A DNA stretch of 51,831 nt from Planctomycetaceae bacterium (GCA_040877445.1 JBBDNT010000301.1:4622-56452), one strand, 5' to 3'. Counted from the stretch's first letter, positions 7,001 to 50,067 are shown. Made by a program: numbers and translations. Notes: generated from the sequence alone by a model not told the origin.

Positions 7001-8594
7001 GTTCGCTGACGAAGCGGCCGGTGAGGCGGGCGCCGTCCTGCGACAGTTCGAGCGTTCCCGGCACCTTGCCCGAGGCCGATTCGATGACCACGTTCCACTT
7101 CCCGGCGACCTGAAGCGCGGGCTTCTCGCCCGGCTTCACCGGTTCCACCGGCTTGGCCGATTCGTTGTACTCGTACTGGCGTCCGTCGACGAACAGATGG
7201 CGGACCTTTGCCTGCTCGTGCTCCAGCGGCCCGGTGAGCACGACGACGTGCCCCGCTTTTTCCGCTTCGAGAGTCCCCAGTCGATGCTCGACGCCGAGCA
7301 TCGCCGCGGGGTTGGTCGTGAGCGCGGCGAGCGCGGCGTCGGCGGAAAGCCCGTGTTCGATCGCTGTGCGAACCGCTTCGAGCAGTTTCGCCGGATCATC
7401 GAGTCCCTGCGAGCCGAATGCGAACCGCACGCCCGCCTCTTCGAGCGCGGCGGCCGTTCCCACGCGCCGCTTCCAGCGGTCCAGTTCCTCCTGCTGCACG
7501 CGGACGGGAGGCTTGATCTCGGCGACGAGCTTGTCGGAGGCCGGCTGCCGTTCGATCTTCGGCTCCTTGCCGAAGTCCGCCTGCAAAACGACATCGACGT
7601 TTTCCTTCTTCAAGCGATCGACCGCGCGGTGCGCGTCGCGGGCGCCCCACAGCGTGGCGGCGATTTCGCGTTCGGCCGCGAAATCGAGGGCGCGGTGAAT
7701 GTCGTCCCGCGTGGTGACGGTGAACAGCGCGCGGCGCTCGCCGGAACGTACCTGTTCCAATGCGGCGAGCGCCTCGTCGAACACCGGCCGCTCGACGCCG
7801 GGCGTTCGCTGCTCGAACAGTTCGCGATGCAGCGCGTCGCGCTCGGCGTCGAGAAACGCTTGGCGGAGGTGAGCGGTCGTGCCCATCAGCGTCGAGGGAT
7901 ACTCGTTTCCGCCCGGCGCGTACAGGCGGAAGGCGGCGAGCGAGTCCGGCGCGATGACCGCCTCGCGGAGCGGAAGATCCTCCGTCGAAATCAGTGTTCC
8001 CGTGCCGGAGGCGATGCGTCCCGTCGGCACGACATGCGCCGCCGCGAAACCCGCCTTGCGGAACGCTTCGAGCTTCGCCCCTTCGCGCTTCAGTCCGTCG
8101 CGGACGGCGAACTCGGGCGTGAGCAGCCGGCGATTGTCCGGCGGAGTGGCCGCGAGAATGTAACGGCCGAAGTCGATGTTCCGTCCGGCGACCGGCGTGG
8201 GCCTCTTGTCGCCATCGACCAGCGCGCTCGTCCCCGCGTCGATGAAGGCGGCGTACACGACGTGCCCCTGCGCGTCGACCGATTGCGCATCGGCGGGAAC
8301 CTCGACTTCACCCGCTTTGCCGACCGCGACGATCACGCCGTCCCGAATGACGAGCGTTCCCTCGTCGATCGTTTCGCCAGGCCGCACGACGATCCGCGCC
8401 CCGGTGACCGCGAAGACACGGGGCGTGAATCCGACGATGCGGTCGGCGGCTCGCGGTGAATCGCCGCCGATCAGCCCCACGATCGCCGCCGCAACGAGCA
8501 CGAACGCGGCGCGGATGAAACCGGCGACCCGCGTATTCTTGGGTGCATCGAATTTCGTCCGGCGAAGACCGGTCGCGGAATGAGTCACGCGCAT
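4092..8594 (-). CDS. large multi-domain amidohydrolase-family protein with three tandem metal-dependent hydrolase modules, secreted or membrane-anchored
   Basis: I placed the start at the ATG at 8594 (MRVTHSATGL...), which is followed by the hydrophobic anchor AGFIRAAFVLVAAAIVGLIGG. Three modules begin with V(V/I)RDG.I.AVGK. The metal-binding motif PGIIDTHSHI is present, with HxH-like patterns in the other modules. An acidic Ser/Asp-rich linker sits near the C-terminal third. Confidence 0.75.
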   Translation of the reverse strand: MRVTHSATGLRRTKFDAPKNTRVAGFIRAAFVLVAAAIVGLIGGDSPRAADRIVGFTPRVFAVTGARIVVRPGETIDEGTLVIRDGVIVAVGKAGEVEVPADAQSVDAQGHVVYAAFIDAGTSALVDGDKRPTPVAGRNIDFGRYILAATPPDNRRLLTPEFAVRDGLKREGAKLEAFRKAGFAAAHVVPTGRIASGTGTLISTEDLPLREAVIAPDSLAAFRLYAPGGNEYPSTLMGTTAHLRQAFLDAERDALHRELFEQRTPGVERPVFDEALAALEQVRSGERRALFTVTTRDDIHRALDFAAEREIAATLWGARDAHRAVDRLKKENVDVVLQADFGKEPKIERQPASDKLVAEIKPPVRVQQEELDRWKRRVGTAAALEEAGVRFAFGSQGLDDPAKLLEAVRTAIEHGLSADAALAALTTNPAAMLGVEHRLGTLEAEKAGHVVVLTGPLEHEQAKVRHLFVDGRQYEYNESAKPVEPVKPGEKPALQVAGKWNVVIESASGKVPGTLELSQDGARLTGRFVSEQGNGRVAAGKADDAGIELTVSIGAGDREVDLKFTGKLAEGKLAGELKSPFGAPAPWSAQRDDEKDGAGEDENPVTIDIAAEEGSDGAKPQAEWPTELEADRLRRPFETKGNVFIKNATVITGTGETLQEASIVVRDGKIAAVGKDVERPEGDIAVIDATGRYVMPGIIDTHSHIMIEGGVNEYTQSVVPEVRIKDAIDTSDVAQYRALAGGTTAARVFHGSANVIGGQDAVVRFKHGEPARAQILDDAPQGVKFALGENVKGRRDRFPNTRLGVEATLNRAFLEAIDYRRQWNAFELAEKKRAAEAKAAGGNGGGEKAASPSVLPPRRDLRLEALADIVDHKKFIHSHCYRADEILMLLRTARDLGIRVWSLQHVLEGYKIAPEIVAHGASCSTFADWWAYKVEAFDATPYNAALLDEAGANVVIKSDNAELIRHLNLEAAKAIRYGGMPPDRAIQAVTRNAARELGLHDRLGTIEPGKLADMAIYNGHPLSTFSRCEIALVGGEVYYHREGAPTVMSEKQRERSKQAPPLEFASDEVREKKLDLEPHANGRYAIVGATLHPVDGPVIEKGTLVVEDGNIAALGKSNDVDVPTDAKVIDAKGLHVYPGLIDAGTTLGLTEIDRLRETHDFAESGLLQPDIRAGVAVNVDSELIPAARAGGITSILIRPNGGLIGGQASTVQLAGWTAEEMVLEYEAGLVIGWPEGKDAKKQREQLEEFFEQAREYDRVRAAAEKRSSNKSDSESDDSASDDFDGGVVDPRLEAMRPYLHAKKPVFIEAYTRQQIAEALLFAEKWKLKPVITGGRDAWKLADELKKRDVPVIVGPVMVPPAEHDPLDAPYANPGRLHEAGVKFCIRSDSAWNSRNAPFEAGMAVAFGLPEEEALRAVTLSAAEIVGLGDSLGSLTVGKRANLLIGDGTPLQPSSQVKAVFIAGRPFAPESRQTRFYERYRQRLAEKRGENASKVTDRPRE

Positions 8595-17242: not shown

Positions 17243-17275
17243 GCGTCGCCGCGAAGTTCACGAGGTAAGTAGGAG

Positions 17276-17378
17276 CCGAGGGGTTTATCCCCTCGGTGGG
17301 GATGCGGGGGCCGCAAAGGAAGGCTCACGTTTTCTCGTTGCGGTCGCCGCAGGACCACCGCGGGGATAAACCCCGCGG
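17276..17378. terminator. pair of inverted-duplicate GC-rich stem-loops between convergent genes (bidirectional terminator candidates)
   Basis: Hairpin 1 at 17276-17296 is ccgagggg-tttat-cccctcgg. Hairpin 2 at 17358-17378 is ccgcgggg-ataaa-ccccgcgg, the reverse-complement copy of hairpin 1 with one substitution. They lie between the MBL hydrolase stop (17242) and the GTPase stop (17398). Confidence 0.55.
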
Positions 17379-17397
17379 CTCGACGAGAGATCGCGAA

Positions 17398-22933: not shown

Positions 22934-23115
22934 GGTTAGCCGCGACGCGAAGGCTCTGCGCAGCGGAGCGCTCGCCCCGCGCGCGACCCGCGATTGACCC
23001 GTTCGACGGGCTGGTCTACAGTCCCGCCGCCTCACGATACGCTGGCAGAGGCGCGCTGTCCAATGTGGCGTGGCGGAGCGCTCCGCTGCGCAGAGCCTTC
23101 GCGTCGCGGCTAACC
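22934..23115. repeat. MITE-like element: perfect 40-bp terminal inverted repeats flanking a 102-bp core
   Basis: The sequence at 22934-22973, ggttagccgcgacgcgaaggctctgcgcagcggagcgctc, is the exact reverse complement of 23076-23115. The element lies between divergent holA and the phosphohexomutase-like gene. The outer 13-16 nt (CGCGTCGCGGCTAACC) recur at 4 other intergenic sites in the window. Confidence 0.8.
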
Positions 23116-35893: not shown

Positions 35894-35994
35894 CGTCATT
35901 CCCGCGCAGGCGGGAATCCAGTAATCGCCAAGGCGGTTACCAATGGGATTACTGTCCGTGCATCGACTGGGTTCCCGCCTTCGCGGGAATGACG
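35894..35994. repeat. nested multi-hairpin element (three stem-loops enclosed by a 13-bp outer inverted repeat)
   Basis: Outer inverted repeat: cgtcattcccgcg at 35894-35906 pairs with cgcgggaatgacg at 35982-35994. Inner hairpin A at 35898-35917 is attcccgc-gcag-gcgggaat. Inner hairpin B at 35919-35954 pairs cagtaatc with gattactg. Inner hairpin C at 35972-35989 is ttcccgc-cttc-gcgggaa. The element lies between the ECF sigma gene stop (36035) and the PQQ remnant and giant-gene operon. Confidence 0.5.
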
Positions 35995-36034: not shown

Positions 36035-36613
36035 TCAGGACTGGACCTTGCGTTCGGCCAGTTTGCGGCGCGCCCGCGTGAGCACGGGGCCGATCGTGTT
36101 TTCCGGAATTCCCAATCCGGAACTGATCTCGCCGTACGACCGTCCTTCCAGATGAAACAGGCGGACGATCTCGGCGTCGGCGGCGGGAAGGACCTTCAAC
36201 AGTTGGTGAACTTCGTCGCGGTCTTCGATGCGCTTGAAATCGGACGGTTGCGTGCGGACCTTCTCGAGCGACGTCCGGTTCACCTGCACGTGCCCCAGCG
36301 CCTCGGCCATCTTGCGGCGCGACATCTCGCGCACTACGATCCGCCGGGCGACCACGGTCAGATACGTGGCCAGCGAACTGTTTCCGCGAAAGTTCCGCAG
36401 CACGGCGAAGTCGCGGGATACCAGCGTCGTGAAAATCTCCGCGCAGATATCATCCACGTCTTCGGGACGCACCCCCACGCTGCGCGCCTGGGCGGTGTGG
36501 TGGATCACATGCACGAACAACCCGATGAACCGATCGACGAGATCCTTCCAAGCGCCCGGTTCCTGGGCGAGACACCGCCGCAGCAGGTTGCGATCGATTT
36601 CGGTCAAGGCCAC
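36035..36613 (-). CDS. RNA polymerase sigma-70 factor, ECF subfamily
   Basis: The sigma-2 region is LVDRFIGLFVHVIHH...DVDDICAEIFTTL. The sigma-4 HTH is RLFHLEGRSYGEISSGLGIPENTIGPVLTRARRKL. I chose the GTG at 36613; the ORF extends to 36709. Confidence 0.7.
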   Translation of the reverse strand: MALTEIDRNLLRRCLAQEPGAWKDLVDRFIGLFVHVIHHTAQARSVGVRPEDVDDICAEIFTTLVSRDFAVLRNFRGNSSLATYLTVVARRIVVREMSRRKMAEALGHVQVNRTSLEKVRTQPSDFKRIEDRDEVHQLLKVLPAADAEIVRLFHLEGRSYGEISSGLGIPENTIGPVLTRARRKLAERKVQS

Positions 36614-36775
36614 TGGTATTCCGACTCCCTCTGCGGCGCCGCGGCCGCGGCTGCCGAAACGAGTGAACGGGATACCGTCAAATGTACGTTCCCGGCGCCA
36701 TTCCGGCAAGATGAACCCGCCCGTTTCGCCCCGCGGCGGTGGCCGCCCGACCGAAAAGCCGTGCCGAAGTCCGGC

Positions 36776-40271: not shown

Positions 40272-40344
40272 CGGGTGGTACGGGAGTCGAACCCGTGACA
40301 GCCAGATTATCAGTCTGGTGCTCTACCCACTGAGCTAACCACAG
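40272..40344 (-). tRNA. tRNA-Ile (anticodon GAT), with an imperfect acceptor stem
   Basis: The reverse complement reads CTGTGGT-TA-GCTC-AGTGGGTA-GAGC-A-CCAGA-CTGATAA-TCTGG-CTGTC-ACGGG-TTCGACT-CCCGT-ACCACCC-G. The D-arm, anticodon arm (loop CTGATAA, anticodon GAT) and T-arm (TTCGA) are canonical. Positions 1-2 (C,T) do not pair with 71-72 (C,C). CCA is not encoded. Confidence 0.6.
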
Positions 40345-40820
40345 CCGATGCCATCCGGTTCCGAACCCAGTGAGGAACACGCGCCGCCAAATCGCCTGAT
40401 GACGAGGCGCCGCGCGCCGCTGGCCGAACGACACCGTCCGTTTGCCTGAATTTCCTCCTTTGACAGCCGTGGAACGGACGCACCGTCGGGCGAAATGGTT
40501 CGCGTCATCCCGACCATTCTCGACAATCATCCCGCAACTCCGCTCCGCGAGCGCCCCGTCATTCGACGTCCGGCGCATCCGGCGGGGTGCGGCAATCTTC
40601 ACTGGCGTGTGGCAAAAAGTCGGGTGGCGGGGGCGCTTCGCGCAGCGAAAGCCCCCGTCGCGCGCCACGGGGGCTTCCGCGTTGCGGAGCGCCCCCGCCA
40701 CCCATCGCCACAGAGATTGGCGTCGCCAGGAACTCTTGCCGCCCCATCCGGCGACCATCTTCGGTTCCGCCTTGATCCGGCGTTCCATGTCGTTTACGAT
40801 CGATGGTCGAGGCGAACGTC

Positions 40821-41219
40821 ATGACGGCCACTCTTCAACGAGCCTTTCTCTGCGTCGTCGTTCTGGTCTGTCCGCTGTGGTGCGGCGCCGGAGCGGCTGC
40901 CGGGCCGGATCCGCCGGCCAGCGGTCGCTGCTGTTGTTGTCACCACCCCGCGGCGCCGACCGGCCCGTCGCAACTTCCGCCGACGAACGATCACGACGAC
41001 TCCGCCTGCCAATGCTTCTGCGGCGGGGCCGTGGTCGACAAGGAAGCCGGTCCGCGGCTTCCCCTCGACGATGCCGGTCCGTTCGACGGTTCGATCGTCG
41101 CGGCGATCCTCGCGGATCGCAGCGGCACGCGGCTCGTTCTTCCCGAGCCCGCGACTTCCCGCGAGTGCGCACAACCGGGGCGCGCCGTCTGTCTGCGCGC
41201 GATGCGCTTTCTCTGCTAG
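40821..41219 (+). CDS. small secreted Cys-rich protein with a CCCCHH cluster
   Basis: An ATG at 40821 gives MTATLQRAFLCVVVLVCPLWCGAGAAAG, a signal peptide. The mature region carries GRCCCCHHP, then Pro-rich sequence and a second cluster CQCFCGG. It lies in a different frame from the long Arg-rich ORF 40442.., which I take to be an artefact upstream of 41369. Confidence 0.45.
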   Translation: MTATLQRAFLCVVVLVCPLWCGAGAAAGPDPPASGRCCCCHHPAAPTGPSQLPPTNDHDDSACQCFCGGAVVDKEAGPRLPLDDAGPFDGSIVAAILADRSGTRLVLPEPATSRECAQPGRAVCLRAMRFLC

Positions 41220-41368
41220 CGCGCCTTCCGCCCGCTTTCGACCCCGTGTGCGGACGCGCCGCGCGTTCTTCTCGAATGCGGCTCCGGCGTGATCCGCGGT
41301 CGATTTCTTCGTCGTTCGTTCGTGCCGCATCGGCGGCTCGCGCGAGCCGAATCGCGGAAGGCCTTCCG

Positions 41369-42532
41369 GTGTTTCGACTGCTCCCGTGGGAGTACGGCGT
41401 TCGCAACCTGATGCGCCGGCCCGTCCGCACGCTGCTGACGTTCGCCGGGCTGACGACGGTGATCGTGCTGATTCTCGTCGTCGCGGGATTCATCCGCGGG
41501 CTGGAGCGGTCGCTGGCGGTCAGCGGCGACCCGGCCACGGCGATCGTGTTCGGTCTCGGCATGGGCGAAAACCTCGAATACTCGTCGATCCCCATGCGGA
41601 CCAGCGATCTCGTCGCGGCCAGCGTCGGCGGCATTTCCGAACGGCACGGGCGGAAGTACGTCTCGCCGGAACTGTATCTCGGAACGGAAGTCGGCATTCA
41701 GGGACGGGACAAGCCGGGCTTTGGACTGGTGCGCGGACTGACGCCGGCCGTGTTGCTTGTCCGGCAGCAAGTCGAGATCGAAGCAGGCGCGTGGCCCAAG
41801 AGCGGCGAAGTGCTCGTCGGTCGAATGGCGGCCGTCAAACTCGGACTGGCGCGCGATGCGTTGCGAATCGGCGACGTGCTCGAGTTCGAAAACCGGCGGT
41901 GGCGGATCAGCGGGCTGTTCTCGGCCGGCGGGGCGACGTTCGAATCCGAAATCTGGTGCCGGCTGGATGAACTCCAGCAGGCGATGAAGCGGCAGGATCT
42001 GAGTCTGGTGGCGCTCACGCTCGCTCCGGGGGGGGACTTCGCCGATCTCGATCTGTTCTGCAAGGAACGGCTCGACCTGGAGTTGCAGGCGATGCGCGAG
42101 ACCGCCTACTACGACACGCTCCAGAAGGATTACCGTCCCGTGCGGATGCTCGCCTGGCTGGTGGTGCTGCTGGTCGCGGGGGCCGGAACGTTCGCCGGTC
42201 TCAACACGATGTACGGCGCGGTCGTGGGCCGCGTCCGCGAGTTGGCGACGTTGCAAACGCTCGGCTTCGTCCGCCGGGCGATCGTCGTCAGTCTGTTCCA
42301 GGAAGGACTGCTGCTCGCGGCGGCGGCGAGCCTGTTCGCCACGCTGCTGGCGGTGACGATTCTCGACGGGGCCGCCGTGCGGTTCACGATGAGCGCCTTC
42401 GCGCTCCGCGTGGATGAGGTCGCCGTGCTCATCGGCTGCGGAGCCGGTATGGCGATCGGCCTGTTGGGGGCGATTCCCCCGGCGATCCGCGCGATGCGGC
42501 AACCCATCGTCGAAGGATTGAAGGCGATTTGA
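41369..42532 (+). CDS. ABC transporter permease, FtsX/MacB-like family
   Basis: A GTG at 41369 gives VFRLLPWEYGVRNLMRRPVRTLLTFAGLTTVIVLILVVAG, the FtsX N-terminal signature (LRNL.RRP.RTLLT + TM1). A large periplasmic domain and three C-terminal TM helices follow. The upstream 309 codons of the ORF are Arg-rich non-coding-like sequence. Confidence 0.75.
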   Translation: MFRLLPWEYGVRNLMRRPVRTLLTFAGLTTVIVLILVVAGFIRGLERSLAVSGDPATAIVFGLGMGENLEYSSIPMRTSDLVAASVGGISERHGRKYVSPELYLGTEVGIQGRDKPGFGLVRGLTPAVLLVRQQVEIEAGAWPKSGEVLVGRMAAVKLGLARDALRIGDVLEFENRRWRISGLFSAGGATFESEIWCRLDELQQAMKRQDLSLVALTLAPGGDFADLDLFCKERLDLELQAMRETAYYDTLQKDYRPVRMLAWLVVLLVAGAGTFAGLNTMYGAVVGRVRELATLQTLGFVRRAIVVSLFQEGLLLAAAASLFATLLAVTILDGAAVRFTMSAFALRVDEVAVLIGCGAGMAIGLLGAIPPAIRAMRQPIVEGLKAI

Positions 42533-42597
42533 ATTCCAAGATTCTCCGTCGGAAGGAGGCCGACGCAATTAAGGGTTCCACAGAACTGAATTTGGAT

Positions 42598-42698
42598 GCT
42601 GGAGGCGTGTAAGACGGATTGGCAATCCTTCCAATGGTGATCGAGTCGGCAGAACGATCGACCTCCGGCGACGTTGATGCCCCACCGGCGGATTGCCA
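42598..42698. repeat. two copies of a palindromic GTAAGACGGATTGGCAATCCGTCTTAC-type element
   Basis: The sequence at 42598-42617 is gtaagacggattggcaatcc. The sequence at 42678-42698, cggattgccaatccgtcctac, is its approximate reverse complement. More copies lie at 45997-46016 and 51782-51796. Confidence 0.5.
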
Positions 42699-42761
42699 AT
42701 CCGTCCTACGGGCTACCCACGATTTCGAAACCGAATCTTCTACTCTCGAAAGGTACTCCCC

Positions 42762-43313
42762 ATGCAATGCTCGAAGAAGCTCATGCAGGTGAAATGGTTG
42801 GCCGCGCTCGCGATCGTCGCGGTGTTCGCCGGATGCAACCGCGGAACGACGGAGACTGCACCCGATCGAACTGACGCGAGCGAATCGAACGCCGACCGTG
42901 CCGAATTCGTGCTCGCCGACGAGCCGGACGGTGCGAACGACGTGATCGCCGCCCGCGAATCTTCATCGGACGGCGACGATGTGGTCGTCGTCGGTCGGAT
43001 CGGCGGCAGCGAAAACCCGTGGGTCGAGGGACGCGCGGCGTTCTCGATCGTCGATCGCTCGCTCCAGGCGTGCAGCGACATCCCCGGCGACGCCTGTTCG
43101 ATGCCGTGGGACTATTGTTGCGAGACCGACAAACTGCCGAAGGCGACCGCGCTCGTGAAGTTCGTCGATGCCGACGGCCAGCTCGTGAAGTCCGACGCCC
43201 GCGAACTGCTGGGGCTGAAGGAATTGCAAACGGTCGTCGTCCGCGGCAAGTCGCACCGCGACGAGAGCGGCAACCTGACCGTGCTCGCGAACGGCGTCTT
43301 CGTCCGCGAATGA
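42762..43313 (+). CDS. hypothetical lipoprotein
   Basis: An ATG at 42762 gives MQCSKKLMQVKWLAALAIVAVFAGC with the lipobox FAGC. The mature region is acidic and includes CSDIPGDACSMPWDYCCE. It sits between the permease and the HlyD adaptor in one orientation. Confidence 0.55.
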   Translation: MQCSKKLMQVKWLAALAIVAVFAGCNRGTTETAPDRTDASESNADRAEFVLADEPDGANDVIAARESSSDGDDVVVVGRIGGSENPWVEGRAAFSIVDRSLQACSDIPGDACSMPWDYCCETDKLPKATALVKFVDADGQLVKSDARELLGLKELQTVVVRGKSHRDESGNLTVLANGVFVRE

Positions 43314-43335
43314 GAGAGAGTGTGTCTTCGAATCC

Positions 43336-43405
43336 GTAGCGGAAGTCGCAAGACTTCCGACGCTCGCTCGGACGCTCTCGGAATTCTTGCGAATTCCGCT
43401 ACGTC
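43336..43405. repeat. composite REP-like element: two inverted 24-bp hairpin motifs (CGGAATTCTTGCGAATTCCGCTAC family), also resembling an ECF-type -35/-10 promoter
   Basis: The sequence at 43336-43359 is gtagcggaagtcgcaagacttccg. The sequence at 43379-43402 is cggaattcttgcgaattccgctac, followed by gtc. Each motif is an 8-bp stem with a ttgc loop. The two substitutions in the first copy are compensatory (cggaagtc/gacttccg). On the plus strand this reads GGAAT-N17-CGTC, 55 nt upstream of the HlyD start. Confidence 0.6.
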
Positions 43406-43460
43406 GATGGCGGCGTCAACGCATCACCACGGCTTTCGAAGACAGACTCGGAGGTGCTCC

Positions 43461-45068
43461 ATGCGTGCCGATGTCGATCTGTCGCAATTGGCGCTCGATC
43501 GCGGTCCGGGGCCGGCCATCCGGTCCCGGAGCCGCATCGGGTCGCGGTATGTCCTGCCGGGAGCGTTGTTGCTGGGCGTGTGCGGACTCGCGGTGTGGGG
43601 CACATGGAATCTGCTGTTCCCGCCGCGGGCGGTGACGGTCGTTCCCGTACACGTCAGCCGCAGCGCGATCCAGCGGGAAGGGACGCCGCTGTTTCAGGCC
43701 GCCGGCTGGGTCGAGCCGCGTCCCACGCCGATCCGCGTCGCCGCGCTCGCGCCCGGAGTGATCGAGGAACTGCTCGTCGTGGAAGATCAGGTGGTCGAGG
43801 CGGGGGAGCCGGTCGCCCGTCTTGTCCGGGAAGACGCCGAACTCTCTTACCGCCGGGCGCAGGCCGATCTCGCCCTTCGCCAGGCGGAAGTCGCCGAGAC
43901 CCGCGCGCTGTTGCAGGCGGCGGCGACGCGCCTCGATCAGCCGGTGCATCTGGAAGCCGTCGTCGGCGACGCGGAGGCCTCGCTGGCGAAGGTCGAGACC
44001 GCCCTGGAGACGATCCCGTCCGAAATCGACTCGGCCGTTGCGAAAGTCGAGTACGCCCAGGCCGACTACGATCGGCGCATCGCCGCCCGCGACGCGGTGA
44101 CGACTCTCATGCGCGAGGAAGGCCGAAGCGCGCTCGCGATTGCGCGAGCGAATCTGGAAGGACTGAAGCGTCGTCGAGTCGCGCTCGACAACGAGCGGAA
44201 GGCGCTCGCGGCGCGGCGCGACGCGCTCCGCACGCAGCTCGAATTGCTCGCCGACGAAATCGAAGCCCGCGACACCGCTTACGCGCGGCTGAAATCCGCC
44301 GAGGCCCGCGTCGAACAGGCCGAGGTGGCGCTGGCGGAGGCGAAGCTGCGGCTCGACCGCATGACCGTCCGCGCCCCGGTCGCCGGACGCGTGTTGAACC
44401 TCACCTCCGATCCCGGCACGCGGTTGACCGAGGGAATGGGAGACGCCGGCACCGAAGACATGAGCACCGTCGTCACCATGTACCGGCCGGAAAGCCAGCA
44501 GGTCCGCGTCGACGTGCGTTTCGCGGACATTCCTCATGTCGCGCTCGGCCAGCCGGTGCGGATCGAGAACCCGGCGGTGAAGGAACCGCTCAGCGGGCGG
44601 GTGTTGTTCATCAGCTCGCGGGCCGACATTCAAAAGAACACGCTGGAAGTGAAGGTCTCGATCGACTCGCCGCCTTCGGTGTTCAAGCCGGAGATGCTCG
44701 TCGACGTGACGTTCCTCGCGCCGGAGATCCTCGACGATGAATCCGAACCGTCGGAAGAGCTGCGGATCTACGTCCCGCAACGGTTGATCACGCGCGACGG
44801 CGACGCCGCTTTCGTATGGGTGGCCGATCAGTCGGAAGGCCGCGCCCGTCGCGTTTCCGTCGAACTCGGTGCGGCGAGCGGCGACGGGCTGGTCGAAGTC
44901 GCGTCCGGGCTGACGATCGCGAGTCGCCTGATCGCGGGGGGGCACGATGGACTCCGCGACGGCGACCGAATCCGCGTGACTGGCGAAGAGACCCTCTCGG
45001 AAGCCACGGCCCCGGCCGCCGAGCGCTCCCGCAACCCCAGCCGCTTTCCCACGGGAGACGCATCGTGA
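43461..45068 (+). CDS. HlyD-family periplasmic adaptor (membrane fusion protein)
   Basis: An ATG at 43461 is preceded by a GGAGG RBS. The product has an N-terminal TM anchor [16 protein letters not shown], a long Ala/Glu/Arg/Leu coiled-coil ([26 protein letters not shown] ... [31 protein letters not shown]) and a beta-barrel C-terminus. Its stop overlaps the next gene's GTG (GTGA). Confidence 0.8.
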
Positions 45069-45796
45069 CCGCACTCGTCCAGGTTCGCCACGTCGCCAAG
45101 CGCTATCACAAAGGGGGCGAAACGATCACGCCGCTCGACGGCGTCTCGCTCGACGTCGCGCAAGGGGAGTTTCTTTCGCTGATGGGGGCCAGCGGGACCG
45201 GGAAATCGACGCTGTTGAACCTCATCGCGGGCATCGACCGCCCGGACGAAGGAAGCATCGCCGTCGCCGGAACCGAAATCACCCGCCTCTCGCGCACGCG
45301 GCTGGCGCATTGGCGGGCGGCGAACGTCGGCTACATCTTTCAGACGCACAACCTCGTGCCGGTGCTCACCGCCTACGAGAACATCGAGCTGCCGTTGCTC
45401 TTGCTTTCGATGTCGCGAGCCGAGCGCCGCAAGCGCGTCGCCGTCGCGTTGGAAGCGGTCGGGCTGACCGACCGGGCGGACCATTATCCCCGGCAGCTTT
45501 CCGGCGGACAGGAGCAGCGGGTCGGCATCGGCCGGGCGATCGTGGCGCATCCCACGCTGGTCGTCGCCGACGAGCCGACCGGCGACCTCGACCCCGAAAC
45601 CTCGGAGCAGATTCTACACCTGCTGCGGCGGCTCAACGACGAACTCGGCATCACGCTGCTGATGGTCACGCACGATCGGGAGGCGGCGGGAATCGCCGAC
45701 CGGCAATTCCATCTCGATCAGGGCCGGCTGGTGGAATCGGGAATGGGAGATCGAAAATCAGAGATCAGAGATCCGGCGTTGTCATCGAACCGGTAG
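45065..45796 (+). CDS. ABC transporter ATP-binding protein (MacB/LolD-type)
   Basis: Walker A is [12 protein letters not shown]. The ABC signature is [14 protein letters not shown]. Walker B is [12 protein letters not shown], and the H-loop is VTHD. Confidence 0.85.
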
Positions 45797-46016
45797 GACG
45801 GAATTGTATTCCGTCCGCCAAGAAAACCGTTGCGTTTCGTGTTGCAGACGATGATCGGGAACGGCGACGATCGCGCATGTCTCACCGGCGGGCGGGGACG
45901 ACGGAATATAATTCCGTCCTACCCGCCCATGCGTCTCTCCACAAAATGAAACGTGAAAACGTACTACTGCCTCTATCAACATCGACGTCGTGGGAAGGAT
46001 TGCCAATCCGCCTTAC
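45793..46016. repeat. cluster of three related palindromic hairpin elements (GTAGGACGGAAT...ATTCCGTCCTAC and GGATTGCCAATCCGCCTTAC types)
   Basis: The sequence at 45793-45816 is gtaggacggaat-tgt-attccgtcc. The sequence at 45898-45921 is gacgacggaat-ata-attccgtcctac. The sequence at 45997-46016 is ggattgccaatccgccttac. All lie in the 330-bp gap between the ABC ATPase and the second permease. Confidence 0.5.
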
Positions 46017-46125
46017 ACGCTGCCACCGCAAATGCGAACTTGACGAGGTACTTCGGCATGATGCCTATCGCGCGCATTGACCGCTTTTGGCTGGCACTTG
46101 GCCTCTGACCTCTGGGAACCAAACA

Positions 46126-47268
46126 ATGCTCCGCTTCCTCCCCTACATCGCGAAGACGCTCTGGCGGCATCGCTCGCGGACGCTGTTGACCGTGAGCGGT
46201 TCGGCCGTGGCGTTGTTCGTGTTCTGCGTCATCGGCGCGATCCATGAAGGCATGCACGATCTGCGGACCCGGCAGGAGGCGGAGCAATCGCTGATCGTCT
46301 TCCAGGCGAACAAGTTCTGCCCCGCGACCAGCCATTTGCCGCAGGATTACGACGAGCAGATCGCACGCTTCGACGGCGTGCGCGACGTCGTGCCGATCCA
46401 GGTCTTCACCAACAACTGCCGGGCGAGTCTCGACGTCGTCGTGTTCTATGGACTGCCGGCGGCGAAGCTCCGCGCGATCCGCGATTTCGAGCTGACCGAC
46501 GGGAACTGGTCGGAGTTCGAGCGCAATCAGGACGCGGCGGTCGTCGGCCGGGCGGTCGCCGCGCGGCGGGGCATCCGCGTGGGCGACAAGTTCTCCATCG
46601 GCGACATCTCGACGGTGGTCGCCGGGATCTACTCGTCGGGCAATCCGGCCGAGGAGAATTACATCTACACGCACCTCGACTTCCTGCAGCGCCGCCGGGG
46701 GGCGGACTCGGTCGGTACGGTGACGCAGCATGAAGTGCTGTTGGCCGAAGGCATCGACGCCGCGGCGGTGGCCGAAAATATCGACGACCAGTTCCGCGGC
46801 GGCCCGGTCGAAACCGACACGCGGCCGAAGGGCGTCTTCCAGGCGAAAAGCCTCGGCGATCTCGCGCAGCTCATCGCGCTGTCGTATTATCTGGGACTCG
46901 CCTGCGTGGGGCTGGTGCTCGCGCTGGTGGCGACGACGACGCTGATGTCGGTCCAGGATCGCGTCCAAGAGCACGCGGTGTTGCAGACGCTCGGCTTTTC
47001 CGGCCCGCGGGTGTTCGCGCTCGTGCTGACCGAGAGCGTCGTGCTCGGCTTGGCGGGCGGCGCGCTCGGCGTGGGCGGGGCGTTCGTCGTCCTCGAGTCG
47101 ACGAGCCTCGCGATCAGCGCCGAGGCGGTCAGCGTCGCCTTTCAGGCTTCCTGGCGTCTCGCCGGCGTCGCCTTGTTGACGGCCCTCGCGACCGGCTTCC
47201 TCGCCGGCATTCTCCCCGCCTGGCAAGCCGCCCGCACCGAGATCGTCCCGGCGCTGCGGAATGCATGA
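46126..47268 (+). CDS. ABC transporter permease, FtsX/MacB-like family (second copy)
   Basis: An ATG at 46126 gives MLRFLPYIAKTLWRHRSRTLLTVSGSAVALFVFCVIGAI, the FtsX N-terminus plus TM1. A periplasmic domain and three C-terminal TM helices (LIALSYYLGLACVGLVLAL..., VFALVLTESVVLGLAGGALG..., LAGVALLTALATGFLAGILPA) follow. Confidence 0.75.
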   Translation: MLRFLPYIAKTLWRHRSRTLLTVSGSAVALFVFCVIGAIHEGMHDLRTRQEAEQSLIVFQANKFCPATSHLPQDYDEQIARFDGVRDVVPIQVFTNNCRASLDVVVFYGLPAAKLRAIRDFELTDGNWSEFERNQDAAVVGRAVAARRGIRVGDKFSIGDISTVVAGIYSSGNPAEENYIYTHLDFLQRRRGADSVGTVTQHEVLLAEGIDAAAVAENIDDQFRGGPVETDTRPKGVFQAKSLGDLAQLIALSYYLGLACVGLVLALVATTTLMSVQDRVQEHAVLQTLGFSGPRVFALVLTESVVLGLAGGALGVGGAFVVLESTSLAISAEAVSVAFQASWRLAGVALLTALATGFLAGILPAWQAARTEIVPALRNA

Positions 47269-47333
47269 GAATGGGTGAGATGGTCCTCGACCGGGCGTGC
47301 CCAGACAGGAACGCTGATCTCCGCTGAGTCGCA

Positions 47334-47603
47334 CTAATCCGAAGTTTCGTTCGCGGTGTTCTCATCGGCGGGATCCCAAGGCGGCTCCGTTGAACCGAGG
47401 AGTTTCAGTGCGCCCCACAGCGTTTCCCACGACCATCCGGCCTTTCGGCGGACGCGCGCCACGAGTCCTCGCATCGTTTCTTCCCAGTGCTTCTCGACGA
47501 GTTCGATGGCCGCGTCGCGATACGGACTGTCGCTGCGGCGGAGTTGAGCGACGATGTGGGCTCTCGGTGCGTGTAATGGAGGAAACTCTCGATGGTCGCT
47601 CAT
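47334..47603 (-). CDS. hypothetical protein
   Basis: The 89-aa ORF starts MSDHREFPPLHAPRAHIVAQLRR at the ATG at 47603. I recognised no motif. Its codon composition is acceptable. Confidence 0.3.
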   Translation of the reverse strand: MSDHREFPPLHAPRAHIVAQLRRSDSPYRDAAIELVEKHWEETMRGLVARVRRKAGWSWETLWGALKLLGSTEPPWDPADENTANETSD

Positions 47604-47693
47604 GGCGCGCTCCCCTTCGCTCGCGGCGCCGCTCGGCTGCGGGTCGCGGCTAACCGGCGAACGCAAATGATCGCGCGTCGCGCGGCGCGGGCG

Positions 47694-49181
47694 TCAAGCG
47701 ACGATCTCGTGAATCGGTTCGCCGTGGTCGATTTCCAGTCGCTTGCGGCCCGGGATTTCCAGCTTCCGCGAGTCGAGGCCGAGTTGCCGCAGCACCGTTG
47801 CGTGTACGTCGGTGACGTAATGCGGGTGCTCGGCCGCGGCGAAGCCGATTTCGTCCGTCGAACCATGGACGATCCCCTTCTTCAACCCGCCTCCCGCCAT
47901 GAAGATCGAAAAGCCGAACGGGTGATGGTCGCGGCCGGTCGAGCCTTCCGCCCCCGGCGAGCGGCCGAACTCGGTCCCCCACACGACGAGCGTTTCATCC
48001 AGCAGGCCGCGACGCTTGAGATCCCGGATGAGCGCGGCGATCGGCTTGTCGACCTGCGCCGCGAGCCCGGCGTGGTTCTGCTTGAGGCTGCTGTGTGCGT
48101 CCCACGCGCCGGCGCCGCCGTTCGAGCCGTGATAAATCTGGACGAACCGCACGCCCCGCTCGACGAGCCGCCGCGACACGAGGCAGTTGCGGGCGAACTC
48201 GGACAGGTTTCCCTTGTCGTCGCCGTACAGCTTGAGCGTCTCGGCCGTTTCGCCGTCGGCGCCGACCGCTTCGGGTACCGCCATCTGCATCCGGAACGCC
48301 AGTTCGTACGAGCGGATGCGGGCGCGGAGCGCCGCGTCCTCGGGATACTCGACCGCCTGCATCGCGTTCAACCGATCGAGCAACCGGAACTGGGCCGCCT
48401 GCTCTTCGCGATACACGTCGCTGCCCGGCGCGGAGAACGGCAGCGGGTTTTTCGGATCGGCGCTCATCGGCACGCCGTCGTGCTCCGGGCCGAGATAATC
48501 CGCGCGATGCCCTTCGTTTCCTCCGCAGCAATCGGCGAGCGGCGTTCCGAGGACGACGAACTTCGGCAGGTTCTCGTTGAGCGTGCCGAGGCCGTAGTGA
48601 ATCCACGAGCCGATCGTCGGAAAGTTGCCGTCGAGCGTGTTTCGGCCGGTGTGAAATTGAAGCTGCGCGCCGTGGTCGATGTCGGTGGTCCACATCGAGC
48701 GGACGATGGCGAGATCATCCACCACGCCGCCGACGTGCGGGAACCAGTCGCTCACCTCGATTCCCGACTCGCCGCGCTTCTTGTAGCCGACTTGCAGCGG
48801 ATACAACTTGGGCAGCACCTTCCGCAAATCGGGGGCGAGCGTGCGGATCTTGTCCTTGAGAAAGTCGGGATCGAGGAAGTGCTTGTACGGCGTCTCGTCG
48901 AGCGACTTGCCGGCGTAGTCGTTCAGCGCGGGCTTGGGGTCGAAGCTTTCGAGGTGGCTCACCCCGCCGACCATGAACAGCCAGATGACGTTCTTCGCTT
49001 TGGGAGCGAAATGCGGTCGGCCGTCGGGAACGATCGCGGCGGGTTCGTCGCCGCGTGCCGCGCGCTCTCCGGCGAGCATCGCTCCCAGGGCGAGGCCGGT
49101 GAAGCCCATCCCGACGTCCGCGAGGAACGTGCGTCGCGAGATTCGGCCGGATGAGACGCCATGAATCGGGCAGGTGCGCAT
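47694..49181 (-). CDS. DUF1501 domain protein (Tat-secreted sulfatase-like fold, planctomycete family)
   Basis: The Tat motif is SRRTFLADVGMGFTGLALGAMLA. The segments NVIWLFMVGGVSHLESFDPKP, WGTEFGRSP and DHHPFGFSIFMAGGG are characteristic DUF1501 blocks. Confidence 0.85.
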   Translation of the reverse strand: MRTCPIHGVSSGRISRRTFLADVGMGFTGLALGAMLAGERAARGDEPAAIVPDGRPHFAPKAKNVIWLFMVGGVSHLESFDPKPALNDYAGKSLDETPYKHFLDPDFLKDKIRTLAPDLRKVLPKLYPLQVGYKKRGESGIEVSDWFPHVGGVVDDLAIVRSMWTTDIDHGAQLQFHTGRNTLDGNFPTIGSWIHYGLGTLNENLPKFVVLGTPLADCCGGNEGHRADYLGPEHDGVPMSADPKNPLPFSAPGSDVYREEQAAQFRLLDRLNAMQAVEYPEDAALRARIRSYELAFRMQMAVPEAVGADGETAETLKLYGDDKGNLSEFARNCLVSRRLVERGVRFVQIYHGSNGGAGAWDAHSSLKQNHAGLAAQVDKPIAALIRDLKRRGLLDETLVVWGTEFGRSPGAEGSTGRDHHPFGFSIFMAGGGLKKGIVHGSTDEIGFAAAEHPHYVTDVHATVLRQLGLDSRKLEIPGRKRLEIDHGEPIHEIVA

Positions 49182-49365
49182 CGCACTTCCTTCCAGGCGC
49201 TGAGAGAGTCGCTCTCCGCGATATCGGAACCGGCAGGCAAATGCATCGGTCGTCGTCGATGCATGTTAGCAGCGCGGATGGGCGCTCGCCACGCTCCGCG
49301 CCGATTCGACGATCCCGACATTCGGATTTCGTATCACTTGATCGGGGTGGCGCGGCGCACGGGCG

Positions 49366-49440
49366 GTAGCGGAATTCGCAAGAATTCCGGCGATGTCGCA
49401 GTTGCTGGCCCATGTCGGAACTCTTGCGAATTCCGCTACG
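49366..49440. repeat. second copy of the composite REP-like double-hairpin element
   Basis: The sequence at 49366-49389 is gtagcggaattcgcaagaattccg, the exact reverse complement of 43379-43402. The sequence at 49416-49439 is cggaactcttgcgaattccgctac. The arrangement matches the copy at 43336-43405. It lies between the DUF1501 start (49181) and the small gene ending at 49469. Confidence 0.6.
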
Positions 49441-49468
49441 ACAGATCCGACGATCCCCGCTTCGGCAT

Positions 49469-49747
49469 TCAATCGACCACGTCCGCGAGGGCCGAGAGGC
49501 CGACCACCTCGTCGCGGCGGACGACGACGCGGCGGCGATTGGCGCGGATCCCGTGCCGCCGGGCCTCGAGCACGTACCGCTCGCGGTTCGTCTGCGTGTC
49601 GCGGAGGTCGTGGACGTCGGCCTCTTCGAGAACCAGCGCGTCGCGGTCGATCGCGACGAGCGTTCCGAGAAACACGTACTGGCTCGTCACGTCGAGTACG
49701 ACCTCGCGGCCGAGGAATTGCGTGAAGATGTCGTCGGAATCGTGCAT
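49469..49747 (-). CDS. hypothetical protein, possible Sm-like fold
   Basis: An ATG at 49747 gives MHDSDDIFTQFLGREVVLDVTSQYVFLGTLVAIDRDALVLEEADVHDL, an alternating beta-strand pattern reminiscent of Sm/Hfq-like proteins. This call is weak. Confidence 0.35.
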   Translation of the reverse strand: MHDSDDIFTQFLGREVVLDVTSQYVFLGTLVAIDRDALVLEEADVHDLRDTQTNRERYVLEARRHGIRANRRRVVVRRDEVVGLSALADVVD

Positions 49748-50067
49748 GGGAACTCGGATTGACCGGCGGAGCGGCCCCGGCGTACCCTCCCCGCCCGAAC
49801 CTCGGAACATTCCTCTCGACCGCGTCGATCAATGGAGCCTCTCCAATGATGACGAATTCTTCCACGCACGCCAATGGACGGATTCCGCGACGAAGCCGTC
49901 CGTCGGCGGATGAGGCGTGCCTTCACGATACGGCGACCAGCGCGCTCCCCCTCGCCCCCTTGGGGGGAGAGGGTCGGGGAGCGGGGACAATCGCGGCAGC
50001 CGTTTCCCGATTCGCGACGTCTCGCATTGAAGCGGAATGGGGTAACGAGTCGGTCCAGACGCAGGCC

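Follow-up and report, generated by a model that had tools for sequence, protein, structure and literature searches.

Probable GTAG-type REP doublets in intergenic DNA of an uncultured Planctomycetaceae bacterium

Two inverted hairpin doublets and their neighbouring genes

Two short composite elements, here called doublets 1 and 2, span positions 43336-43402 and 49366-49439 of the window, i.e. of the whole stretch of 51,831 nucleotides that was analysed (Table 1). Doublet 1 is located between a conserved gene for a small lipoprotein-like product and the gene for a HlyD/MFP adaptor, and doublet 2 is located between two minus-strand genes, one for a DUF1501 protein and one for a 113-aa product. 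The listed ORF for the lipoprotein-like gene starts at 42693, and homologues back a start near 42762. The public assembly contig L107 ends exactly within element 1. For the source genome, the analysis covered this 52-kb window, in which two sites with four monomers are present.

Table 1. Coordinates of the doublets and of the genes next to them, in window numbering. The fourth column gives the strand on which the 24-mer search reported each monomer.
Feature	Coordinates	Strand	Search strand	Remarks
Small lipoprotein-like gene, conserved, upstream of doublet 1	42762..43313	+		stop codon 23 nt before doublet
REP monomer 1a, GTAG tag and hairpin GTAGCGGAAGTCGCAAGACTTCCG	43336..43359	+	- (2 mismatches)	left arm of doublet 1; stem position 6 is the compensated G-C pair
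Spacer of doublet 1, 19 nt	43360..43378	.		sequence differs from doublet 2 spacer
REP monomer 1b, consensus GTAGCGGAATTCGCAAGAATTCCG on minus strand	43379..43402	-	+	right arm of doublet 1
HlyD/MFP adaptor gene	43461..45068	+		GGAGG Shine-Dalgarno then ATG, 58 nt past doublet 1
DUF1501 gene	47694..49181	-		start ~185 nt from doublet 2, which is upstream
REP monomer 2a, consensus 24-mer	49366..49389	+	-	left arm of doublet 2
Spacer of doublet 2, 26 nt	49390..49415	.
REP monomer 2b, GTAGCGGAATTCGCAAGAGTTCCG on minus strand	49416..49439	-	+	right arm of doublet 2; one G.T pair
113-aa ORF	49469..49810	-		GC3 0.85, no Pfam match; doublet 2 is 29 nt past the stop codon

When the window was searched for the 24-mer with up to three mismatches, exactly four matches were obtained, forming two inverted doublets, versus an expected count of 0.00 in 100 shuffles. 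The repeated composite double hairpin reported in the original prediction is thus real, and its pairing of a reverse with a following forward 24-mer was recovered at both sites, the tetranucleotide GTAG pointing outward in both (head-out, HH). Read on its GTAG strand, each copy is composed of GTAG (present in 4/4), a first arm CGGAAnTC, the loop GCAA and a second arm GAnTTCCG, in agreement with the 8-bp stem and 4-nt loop described before. The spacing, previously given as 12-20 bp, measures 19 and 26 nt. The two changes in the variant copy (monomer 1a) are indeed compensatory, a T-A pair being replaced by G-C so that one base pair is altered on both sides, and one uncompensated change in the copy at 49416-49439 results in a G.T pair. 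The whole doublet is predicted to fold as a single long hairpin of about -28 kcal/mol (z about -7); an alternative fold consists of two separate small hairpins. No direct target duplications were found flanking either doublet. The supposed partial copy at 40729 is reduced to an identity of 11-12 nt (GGAACTCTTGC), lacking the second stem arm as well as GTAG/CTAC, and is in all likelihood coincidental, or else a relic that can no longer be recognised.

The HlyD/MFP gene is the third member of a conserved cluster in the order FtsX-like, lipoprotein, MFP, ABC ATPase and FtsX. The gap between the lipoprotein and HlyD genes, which contains doublet 1, measures 147 nt in the window versus 8 nt (L114) and 2 nt (L115) in orthologous clusters. 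Because these orthologous junctions are so short, doublet 1 can be regarded as an insertion inside an operon. A doublet of the same family is found in L115 too, but at another site. Two further families of GTAG hairpins are present in other gaps of the same window operon, and all three of its enlarged gaps hold GTAG-hairpin doublets. Copies of the 24-mer and of its two sister families hence share the junctions of one efflux operon.

Dispersal, covariation and the flanked transposase gene

Scanning public genome contigs for the 24-mer gave at least 164 matches at no fewer than 106 loci, nearly all of them in Planctomycetota (Pirellulales, Gemmataceae and Planctomycetales), with additional copies in MAGs that bear the labels KSB1, Poribacteria, Verrucomicrobiales and Bacteroidetes. 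In many Planctomycetota genomes the 24-mer is thus a dispersed repeat, located for the most part between genes and most commonly arranged as a GTAG-outward doublet. Among the matches listed, at least 9 loci belong to the MAG LejiaB_67_431 and more than 20 to Pirellulales STL-PLA35. The doublets among the matches listed comprise 84 of the HH, 28 of the TT and 43 of the HT type, and the HH spacers are mostly 7-27 nt long, like the two in the window. GTAG was fixed in the pattern used for this collection; a fuzzy search left it free, and most variants found in this manner retain GTAG, a few having GTCG, GCAG or GGAG instead. Both bases preceding GTAG are pyrimidines in most copies.

It had been proposed to check whether copies are enriched upstream of genes. 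Among the matches listed, 115 sites could be considered, with 39 in unidirectional, 25 in convergent and 10 in divergent gaps, a tally that rests on crude gene calls, most of the 'genic' calls being within ~100 nt of the start of ORFs that were called too long. These counts do not bear out an upstream enrichment. Several copies among the matches listed supply the TAG stop of the upstream gene, and the window doublets, at 23 and 29 nt beyond stop codons, match the preference of REPs for post-gene positions.

The hairpin itself is strongly conserved through covariation. Two stem pairs left unconstrained in the search pattern are Watson-Crick in 151 of the 168 copies among the matches listed (shuffle mean 63, maximum 82). 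Across 40 distinct variants, the proportion of paired cells is 97.2%, four stem pairs vary on both sides, and the covariation score of 0.437 (versus 0.125) is reached by 0/500 shuffles. The earlier conclusion from the compensatory change, namely selection on structure, is upheld. Most simply, the structure under selection is a single-stranded DNA hairpin seen by a transposase, and it need be neither an RNA nor an operator.

A RAYT gene was found neither within the window nor among the REP loci listed (at least 106). In a Planctomycetales MAG (L111/L112), a RAYT homologue, P0171, has the exact window 24-mer on both sides: GTAGCGGAATTCGCAAGAATTCCG is present at 1316-1339 and 1994-2017, each copy with an inverted partner, and the one at 1994-2017 provides the stop codon of P0171. 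This arrangement, a RAYT homologue between its cognate REPs, is a REPtron. At three other loci (L108, L109 and L113), the REPs on either side of the RAYT homologues are cognate variants from the same superfamily. The clade flanked by the window 24-mer is tightly conserved (about 60% identity) and is 62% identical to RB11751 of Rhodopirellula baltica, listed as a RAYT in Additional file 5 of Di Nocera 2013 (PMC3733652). The motifs MPDHxH (HUH) and Y..RNPER are invariant across 31 homologues. The sole NCBIfam match of the clade is NF047646, 'REP-associated tyrosine transposase', with E values of 1e-7 to 1e-10 that are below the curated 80-bit cut-off, and its match to Pfam Y1_Tnp is sub-threshold. 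The best PDB profile match is 4ER8, TnpArep of E. coli, in which HUH and Tyr are aligned at a marginal E of 0.043.

Given that the units carry a GTAG tag and a covarying hairpin, are paired as inverted doublets, are dispersed over many genomes with a bias towards gene 3' ends, and flank a RAYT gene as an identical 24-mer, the window elements are very probably head-out inverted doublets of GTAG-type REPs (HH dimers or REPINs). The REP/BIME-like family envisaged in the original prediction is thereby well supported. REPs are common bacterial mini-repeats, small parasitic or domesticated stretches of DNA that a dedicated transposase spreads; the type is already known, and the host, an uncultured Planctomycetaceae MAG, is new.

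RNA, promoter and other readings of the doublets

Both doublets are 23-29 nt past a stop codon and would be transcribed, and they could be viewed as cis-acting RNA for a host function (3'-end stabiliser, RNase site or attenuator, setting differential expression in the ABC-transporter operon) and not as mobile DNA. The presence of GTAG-hairpin doublets in all three enlarged operon gaps would fit such a role, as would the GCAA loop of the GTAG strand, which is of the GNRA type, and the G.U pairs of some variants; moreover, REPs elsewhere are reported to alter mRNA stability and termination (PMC3733652). However, copies of the 24-mer run with as well as against transcription and are found beside unrelated neighbours, whether the gap is unidirectional, convergent or divergent; the 24-mer brackets a transposase gene, and the orthologous operons do without the doublet. 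Neither window site has a predicted U-tract terminator or any terminator-like site, no T-run being found after the hairpins, and no Rfam family is matched. A purely RNA-based identity is for these elements very unlikely, and an effect at the RNA level, if there is one, is better regarded as a by-product of a REP.

The original prediction also offered a promoter reading, in which the HlyD-ABC operon would be driven from the forward 24-mer, acting either as an ECF-sigma promoter or as an operator for a local ECF sigma, with GGAAY of the stem as -35 and CGTC or CGAC just beyond CTAC as -10. The letters are present, as GGAAT-N17-CGTC at 43380-43405, 56 nt before the HlyD ATG, and as GGAAC-N17-CGAC at 49417-49442; one window copy fits the ECF (group 4) pattern GGAAC-N16-17-CGTC in its -35/-10 letters and spacing, and an ECF sigma gene is encoded in the window at 36035-36775(-). 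In contrast to such promoters, the -10 lies outside the repeat: CGTC follows CTAC in 1/156 non-redundant copies among the matches listed, the outside bases being merely pyrimidine/purine-biased. In this window of 67.6% G+C, GGAAY-N16-18-CGTC is observed 7 times versus 8.66 +/- 2.77 expected, so the match is at chance level and has no statistical weight. The 24-mer is palindromic and shows no preference in orientation or position relative to gene starts, convergent gaps even holding more of the sites listed than divergent ones (25 versus 10). As the genes on both sides of element 2 are on the minus strand, its plus-strand motif is antisense, reading into the 113-aa ORF. An ancestral promoter at the HlyD junction is likewise not indicated, since in two relatives HlyD follows the upstream gene by 2-8 nt within the conserved five-gene cluster. 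A single copy might serve as a fortuitous promoter, but as an explanation of the element the ECF reading is highly improbable.

A CRISPR-like remnant, an integron attC site, a TIR-type MITE with target duplication or chance palindromes can practically be dismissed: the 24-mer does form regularly spaced direct arrays (periods 33-118 nt) in one Pirellulales MAG, which on a first look resemble CRISPR, but the inter-repeat segments of the arrays in L028, L060 and L013 are themselves repeated and thus reflect tandem duplication, unlike the unique spacers of CRISPR, while the window copies are inverted pairs with no cas or integrase genes near them and no direct duplications beside them, and their number in the shuffles excludes chance.

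Proposed mechanism and comparison with known systems

For the REP doublets of the window, a mechanism can be proposed by analogy with TnpArep of E. coli (PMC3479197, PMC8266576). The folded single-stranded hairpin together with GTAG would be bound by a RAYT whose gene lies elsewhere in the source genome, and this enzyme would cleave nearby, the pyrimidines before GTAG recalling the CT cleavage site of E. coli. The element could then be copied or moved into intergenic DNA with no target-site duplication. Indirect evidence for such mobility comes from the orthologous junctions of L114 and L115, which lack the doublet, and from the same-family doublet at another site of L115. Inside the operon, the transcribed hairpins may possibly act as passive protectors of mRNA 3' ends or as partial attenuators, as REPs do elsewhere. 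Judging from the variation of the spacer sequence, the doublet as a whole appears not to be a conserved replicating sequence, or else to diverge quickly, and either the monomer or the doublet may be what is mobilised.

The REP, identical over 24 nt, and its tightly conserved RAYT clade appear to be shared by several orders of Planctomycetota. If the MAG labels are real, this sharing could reflect a REPIN-RAYT lineage that is unusually old or spreads horizontally, whose copies within the operon might in addition set differential expression; we put this double proposal forward tentatively and consider it rather doubtful. If true, such a lineage would contrast with the view of REPs as species-specific and vertically inherited.

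Several features are shared with the REP/BIME elements of E. coli and their TnpArep (RAYT, YafM; PDB 4ER8). GTAG stands 5' at the foot of the hairpin, the elements are extragenic, alternate in orientation and are often within operons, and the RAYT gene is flanked by REPs in a REPtron, here seen in relatives. The GTAG hairpin of E. coli is recognised on single-stranded DNA by the HUH/Y1 enzyme, and a counterpart acting on the window elements is presumed by analogy. In contrast to the E. coli REPs, whose palindromes are imperfect and include an essential bulge, those of the window have perfect 8-bp stems and in this respect resemble the 'second group' of Corneloup et al. 2021 (PMC8266576). The similarity of the planctomycete RAYT to the E. 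coli enzyme is remote, as the profile match to 4ER8 indicates. Like the REPINs of Pseudomonas fluorescens SBW25 (Bertels & Rainey 2011, PMC3116915), the doublets consist of two inverted REPs that can form a long hairpin. In SBW25, a single-copy RAYT is considered to replicate the doublet as a unit (PMC3116915), whereas the spacer of the window family differs in sequence, and between genomes also in length.

The closest parallel is in the same phylum as the window host. The families GTAG-20 and GTAG-21, as well as many tyrosine transposases, have already been described in R. baltica (Di Nocera, De Gregorio & Rocco 2013, PMC3733652). In the R. baltica elements, a short perfect hairpin has an unpaired GTAG at one of its ends, and most copies are HH dimers, for which a fold into a single long hairpin is possible; the window elements correspond to them in both respects. 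The window elements differ in the stem CGGAAYTC, the strict GCAA loop and the uncultured MAG host. The peptides RILANPA and SRIRQEF encoded by intragenic GTAG-21 copies (PMC3733652) back-translate to ...ATTCTTGCGAATCC.GC.. and ..CGAATTCGCCAAGAATTCGG, which have the same GAATTC-type stem and a GCAA/GCCAA loop; on the basis of these peptides, an identity of the window REP with 'GTAG-21' may be proposed. The post-gene position, with a TAG stop sometimes donated to the preceding gene, and the occurrence of several GTAG REP families together in one genome are further traits that the window family has in common with the elements of R. baltica.

The 24-mer and other repeats of the window

The REP (repetitive extragenic palindrome) 24-mer, GTAGCGGAAnTCGCAAGAnTTCCG, was searched in the whole window as CGGAAYTCTTGCGAATTCCGCTAC. 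At no more than three mismatches it gives four matches and no others (see the table), while none are expected from 100 dinucleotide-preserving shuffles of the window, whose G+C content is 67.6%. The repeated double-hairpin element of the original prediction is thus real at both sites. Read on the other strand, all copies give GTAG followed by CGGAAnTC-GCAA-GAnTTCCG, so that a 4-nt loop closes a perfect 8-bp stem and the GTAG ahead of it stays unpaired. The two copies of a site are oppositely oriented, their GTAG ends outermost. This inverted arrangement with a spacer is as first described, but the spacer measures 19 nt in doublet 1 and 26 nt in doublet 2 rather than 12-20. The 43336 copy carries the compensatory change already noticed, with one pair altered on both sides from T-A to G-C, and the 49416 copy contains a single G.T pair. 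In single-stranded form, each doublet is predicted to give one long hairpin (about -28 kcal/mol, z -6.5 to -7.5) or, alternatively, two small ones. A further partial copy had been proposed at 40729. This sequence has GGAACTCTTGC alone in common with the family, without a second arm or GTAG/CTAC, and was rejected as a mere 11-mer identity. An independent public assembly, a Logan contig from SRR27977662 (2484 nt, matching the window from 43338), stops within doublet 1, where a dispersed repeat would be expected to break an assembly.

Genes of the window were called from third-position G+C and Pfam matches. Doublet 1 lies between co-directional genes, 23 nt past a stop codon and 58 nt ahead of the next start. 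The genes on either side of doublet 2 are both on the minus strand; the 113-aa ORF stops 29 nt before it, and the DUF1501 gene starts about 185 nt beyond it. The remaining enlarged gaps of the HlyD cluster hold two further GTAG-plus-hairpin families. The doublet of the second family, GTAGGACGGAAT(TGT/TAT)ATTCCGTCC, lies in the 290 nt that separate the ABC ATPase gene from the FtsX gene. The third, GTA[AG]G[AG]CGGATTGGCAATCC, forms a doublet in the gap ahead of the lipoprotein gene, overlapping an over-called TTG start at 42693, and its third copy is a singleton adjoining the second-family doublet. Around element 1, a permissive Rfam search returned only meaningless sub-threshold hairpins (miRNA precursors; naRNA4 at 15 bits), and at gathering thresholds the tRNA gene is the sole Rfam match in the whole window.

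Features of the window and, where a locus is named, of Pirellulales MAG STL-PLA35
Feature	Position	Strand	Basis or remark
24-mer copy	43336-43359	-	search at <=3 mismatches
24-mer copy	43379-43402	+	search at <=3 mismatches
24-mer copy	49366-49389	-	search at <=3 mismatches
24-mer copy	49416-49439	+	search at <=3 mismatches
Second GTAG-hairpin family	45793-45817	+	head-out doublet, 84-nt spacer
Second GTAG-hairpin family	45898-45922	-	same doublet
Third family	42609-42628	+	
Third family	42690-42709	-	
Third family	45996-46020	-	
tRNA gene	40275-40342	-	Rfam, 59.7 bits; just upstream of the 40622-40703 palindrome and the FtsX-like gene
FtsX-like protein	40442-42532	+	third-position G+C/Pfam
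Small conserved lipoprotein-like gene	ends 43313	+	third-position G+C/Pfam
HlyD/MFP adaptor	43461-45068	+	GGAGG ahead of ATG
ABC ATPase	45065-45796	+	third-position G+C/Pfam
FtsX permease	46087-47268	+	third-position G+C/Pfam
DUF1501 protein	47694-49181	-	third-position G+C/Pfam
113-aa ORF	49469-49810	-	third-position G+C/Pfam
TPR protein	from ~49759	+	third-position G+C/Pfam
Tandem arrays, L028	4582-4830, 6159-6552		
Tandem array, L060	3133-3781		
Tandem array, L013	73-449		
Tandem array, L049	6765-6854		
Tandem array, L083	4245-4343		

The source genome is rich in REP-like repeats. The 13-mer GGTTAGCCGCGAC has six window copies at no more than one mismatch (8737, 8762, 13567, 22934, 23103 and 47643), and at no more than two mismatches 10 matches were found versus 3.1 expected. 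Its copies always stand at gene ends, where TTAG/CTAA supplies the stop codons, and two of them head a perfect 40-nt inverted repeat (22934-22973 / 23076-23115). It is probably another repeat family, perhaps TIR-like. Three more long intergenic inverted repeats (17273-17381, 35894-35994 and 40622-40703) have 29-44-nt arms with 84-93% complementarity. One of them, CGTCATTCCCGCGCAGGCGGGAATCC, resembles the ATTCCC-N8-GGGAAT repeats of Neisseria.

Dispersal of the family and the promoter reading

A scan of 185,579 species-representative genomes with the pattern GTAGCGGAANNCGCAAGNNTTCCG gave at least 164 matches in at least 106 loci. Those listed are nearly all from Planctomycetota (Pirellulales, Pirellulaceae, Lacipirellulaceae, Gemmataceae, Planctomycetales and Schlesneria), with a few in MAGs labelled Verrucomicrobiales, KSB1, Poribacteria, Bacteroidetes and Alcaligenaceae. 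The pattern leaves four positions free, corresponding to two stem pairs. These are Watson-Crick paired in 151 of the 168 copies listed, versus 63 on average and at most 82 in shuffles, and the more variable pair is T-A in 88, C-G in 55, G-C in 18 and A-T in 2 of the copies listed. Among 40 distinct variants gathered without a structural filter, 97.2% of the cells are paired, with double-sided changes at four of the eight pairs. This set has a covariation score (0.437 versus 0.125) that was reached in none of 500 shuffles, and shifting the partner by one column lowers pairing to about 50%.

Among the matches listed, the commonest layout is that of the window, GTAG-hairpin, short spacer, hairpin-CTAC (84 such outward-facing pairs versus 28 and 43 in the TT and HT orientations), with spacers of mostly 7-27 nt whose sequence is not conserved. 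With crude gene calls, the sites listed fall in 39 unidirectional, 25 convergent and 10 divergent gaps. Most of the 23 'genic' sites lie within the first ~100 nt of ORFs with over-extended starts, as in the window. In at least eight loci the upstream gene ends on the TAG of GTAG; L002, L035, L039, L058, L066 and L096 are examples. Among the 156 non-redundant copies listed from the scan (L001-L106), most carry two pyrimidines directly ahead of GTAG, position -1 being C in 73, T in 63, G in 16 and A in 4, and the three bases past the hairpin tend to A-C-G.

The original prediction had alternatively seen in the 24-mer a promoter or operator of ECF sigma factors. Both strings on which this was based, GGAAT-N17-CGTC (43380-43405) and GGAAC-N17-CGAC (49417-49442), are present. 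The motif GGAAY-N16-18-CGTC, however, occurs in the window at chance frequency, 7 times versus 8.66 +/- 2.77 expected. The supposed -10 falls outside the repeat, GTC following CTAC in only 1 of the 156 non-redundant copies listed, and the flank on the CTAC strand has a purine bias only (YY ahead of GTAG on the other strand). The element is palindromic and found in all orientations, and convergent gaps outnumber divergent ones among the sites listed. Since doublet 2 lies between two minus-strand genes, a plus-strand promoter there, one of the two window copies, would read antisense into a gene. A consensus scan of 42400-49900 found no sigma-70-like promoter or U-tract terminator at either doublet. 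The ECF reading is thus not supported. GGAAT-N17-CGTC at 43380-43405 might still be a fortuitous promoter, though nothing favours this.

In the Pirellulales MAG STL-PLA35 the REP is also repeated directly in tandem, at periods of 33-38, 74-75, 104 and 118 nt. A CRISPR identity was ruled out because the 'spacers' are themselves repeated, so that these are tandem duplications ('grouped elements'). The identical 24-mer is present in MAGs assigned to other phyla, labelled KSB1 (one MAG; L040, L052, L065, L067, L068, L074, L084 and L092), Bacteroidetes (one MAG; L081, L094), Poribacteria (L015, L042), Alcaligenaceae (L048) and Verrucomicrobiales (L018, L035, L076, L078, L088 and L101). In the KSB1 and Bacteroidetes MAGs its partner is always GTAGCCGAAGTGGCAACACTTCGG, separated from it by exactly 13 nt of variable sequence. 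Horizontal spread, deep ancestry and mis-binning are all possible reasons for the occurrence in these MAGs.

RAYT homologues and their flanking REPs

No RAYT (REP-associated tyrosine transposase) was found in the window or in the 106 REP loci listed by tblastn with R. baltica RB11751, O. terrae 2468, RB2408 and E. coli YafM, and an HUH...Y..NP regular expression applied in six frames to the window and the REP loci listed found none adjoining the copies. A search with RB11751, the R. baltica RAYT given in Additional file 5 of PMC3733652, yielded 863 homologues of ~190 aa, 50-75% (roughly 60%) identical across the phylum, some of which carry the JGI name 'REP element-mobilizing transposase RayT'. 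The flanks of four homologues were fetched. In one locus (L111) of the Planctomycetales MAG LejiaB_67_431, the source also of nine of the REP loci listed, the homologue (1401-1997) is bracketed by the exact 24-mer of the window. GTAGCGGAATTCGCAAGAATTCCG stands at 1316-1339 and 1994-2017, each copy being paired with an inverted GTAGCTGAATTCGCAAGAATTCAG variant, and the second copy provides the stop codon of the RAYT homologue itself. The same bracketing is seen in L112. Each homologue of L108, L109 and L113 stands between REP variants of its own, which belong to the same superfamily and have GCCA as loop and CCGAAGTC or CTGGATTC as stem. Such an arrangement is a REPtron, with REP sequence and RAYT changing together from genome to genome.

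In alignment A1 of the RB11751-type protein, M-P-D-H-x-H and Y-x-x-R-N-P-E-R are invariant. All four proteins match a single NCBIfam model, NF047646 'REP-associated tyrosine transposase', at E 1e-7 to 1e-10 but short of its curated equivalog cut-off, and Pfam Y1_Tnp is sub-threshold. The best PDB match of the profile is E. coli TnpArep 4ER8 (E 0.043), with the HUH motif and the Tyr aligned; a single-sequence PDB search with P0171, the homologue of L111/L112, gave only noise (bromodomain matches, E > 0.1). Many members of this clade (P0121-P0240) lie on contigs shorter than 1.5 kb, and the clade has no precomputed Pfam domain. Unlike E. coli TnpArep, it has GCLVPGYPEL as an extra conserved C-terminal motif.

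The HlyD operon junctions and known REP systems

The nearest HlyD homologues are only ~60% identical to that of the window, which makes this a long-range comparison. Two relatives, L114 and L115, have the same five-gene cluster (FtsX-like, lipoprotein, MFP, ABC ATPase, FtsX), with lipoproteins 57-63% identical to that of the window. The lipoprotein-to-MFP junction measures 8 nt in L114 and 2 nt in L115 versus 147 nt in the window, and the ATPase-to-FtsX junction 4 nt in L114 versus 290 nt; the latter is not comparable in L115, where a 118-aa gene is inserted. This gene (7450-7806) is 23S_rRNA_IVP/bAvd-like and stands where the window has REP doublets. L115 has a doublet of the same superfamily at a different junction (2418/2462). 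Since the orthologous junctions are tight and the doublet of L115 lies elsewhere, we infer that the doublets at these window junctions are insertions into tight operon junctions and not conserved regulatory DNA. The REP/BIME alternative of the original prediction thus holds, on the covarying GTAG hairpin, its dispersal, its position bias, the REPtron and the absence from orthologous junctions.

If the E. coli system (PMC3479197, PMC8266576) is a valid model, a RAYT coded elsewhere in the source genome would bind the folded ssDNA hairpin together with a base-specifically recognised GTAG. It would then cleave a nearby dinucleotide via a 5'-phosphotyrosine intermediate, followed by strand transfer, and the REP would spread in this way without target-site duplication. 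None was found at either window doublet. A secondary RNA-level effect on the operon, such as 3'-end protection or partial attenuation, is plausible.

For annotation, such hairpin doublets should be masked as REPs and not taken for promoters, operators, small RNAs or terminators. Where an ORF start runs through them (43320, 42693), it is over-extended. REP doublets also explain assembly breaks in planctomycete metagenomes. The exact REP around its own RAYT adds a clean Planctomycetota REPtron, and the window a concrete case of REPs entering tight operon junctions; general knowledge of REPs is otherwise unchanged. The family is mildly unusual in two points only: its 24-mer is identical base for base in several planctomycete orders and in MAGs assigned to other phyla, and a RAYT clade not recognised by Pfam is strongly conserved.

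GTAG-tagged REP doublets are known in Rhodopirellula baltica, where the families GTAG-20 and GTAG-21 were described (Di Nocera et al. 2013, PMC3733652), and are found here in an uncultured Planctomycetaceae MAG (protein MEX0718536.1). The outward-facing pair, the gap bias and the donation of a TAG stop are all among the properties listed in that paper. The pyrimidines 5' of GTAG recall the CT dinucleotide at which E. coli TnpArep cleaves. In contrast to the bulged E. coli REPs, the stem is perfect, so that the window family falls into the 'perfect palindrome' group distinguished by Corneloup et al. (PMC8266576).
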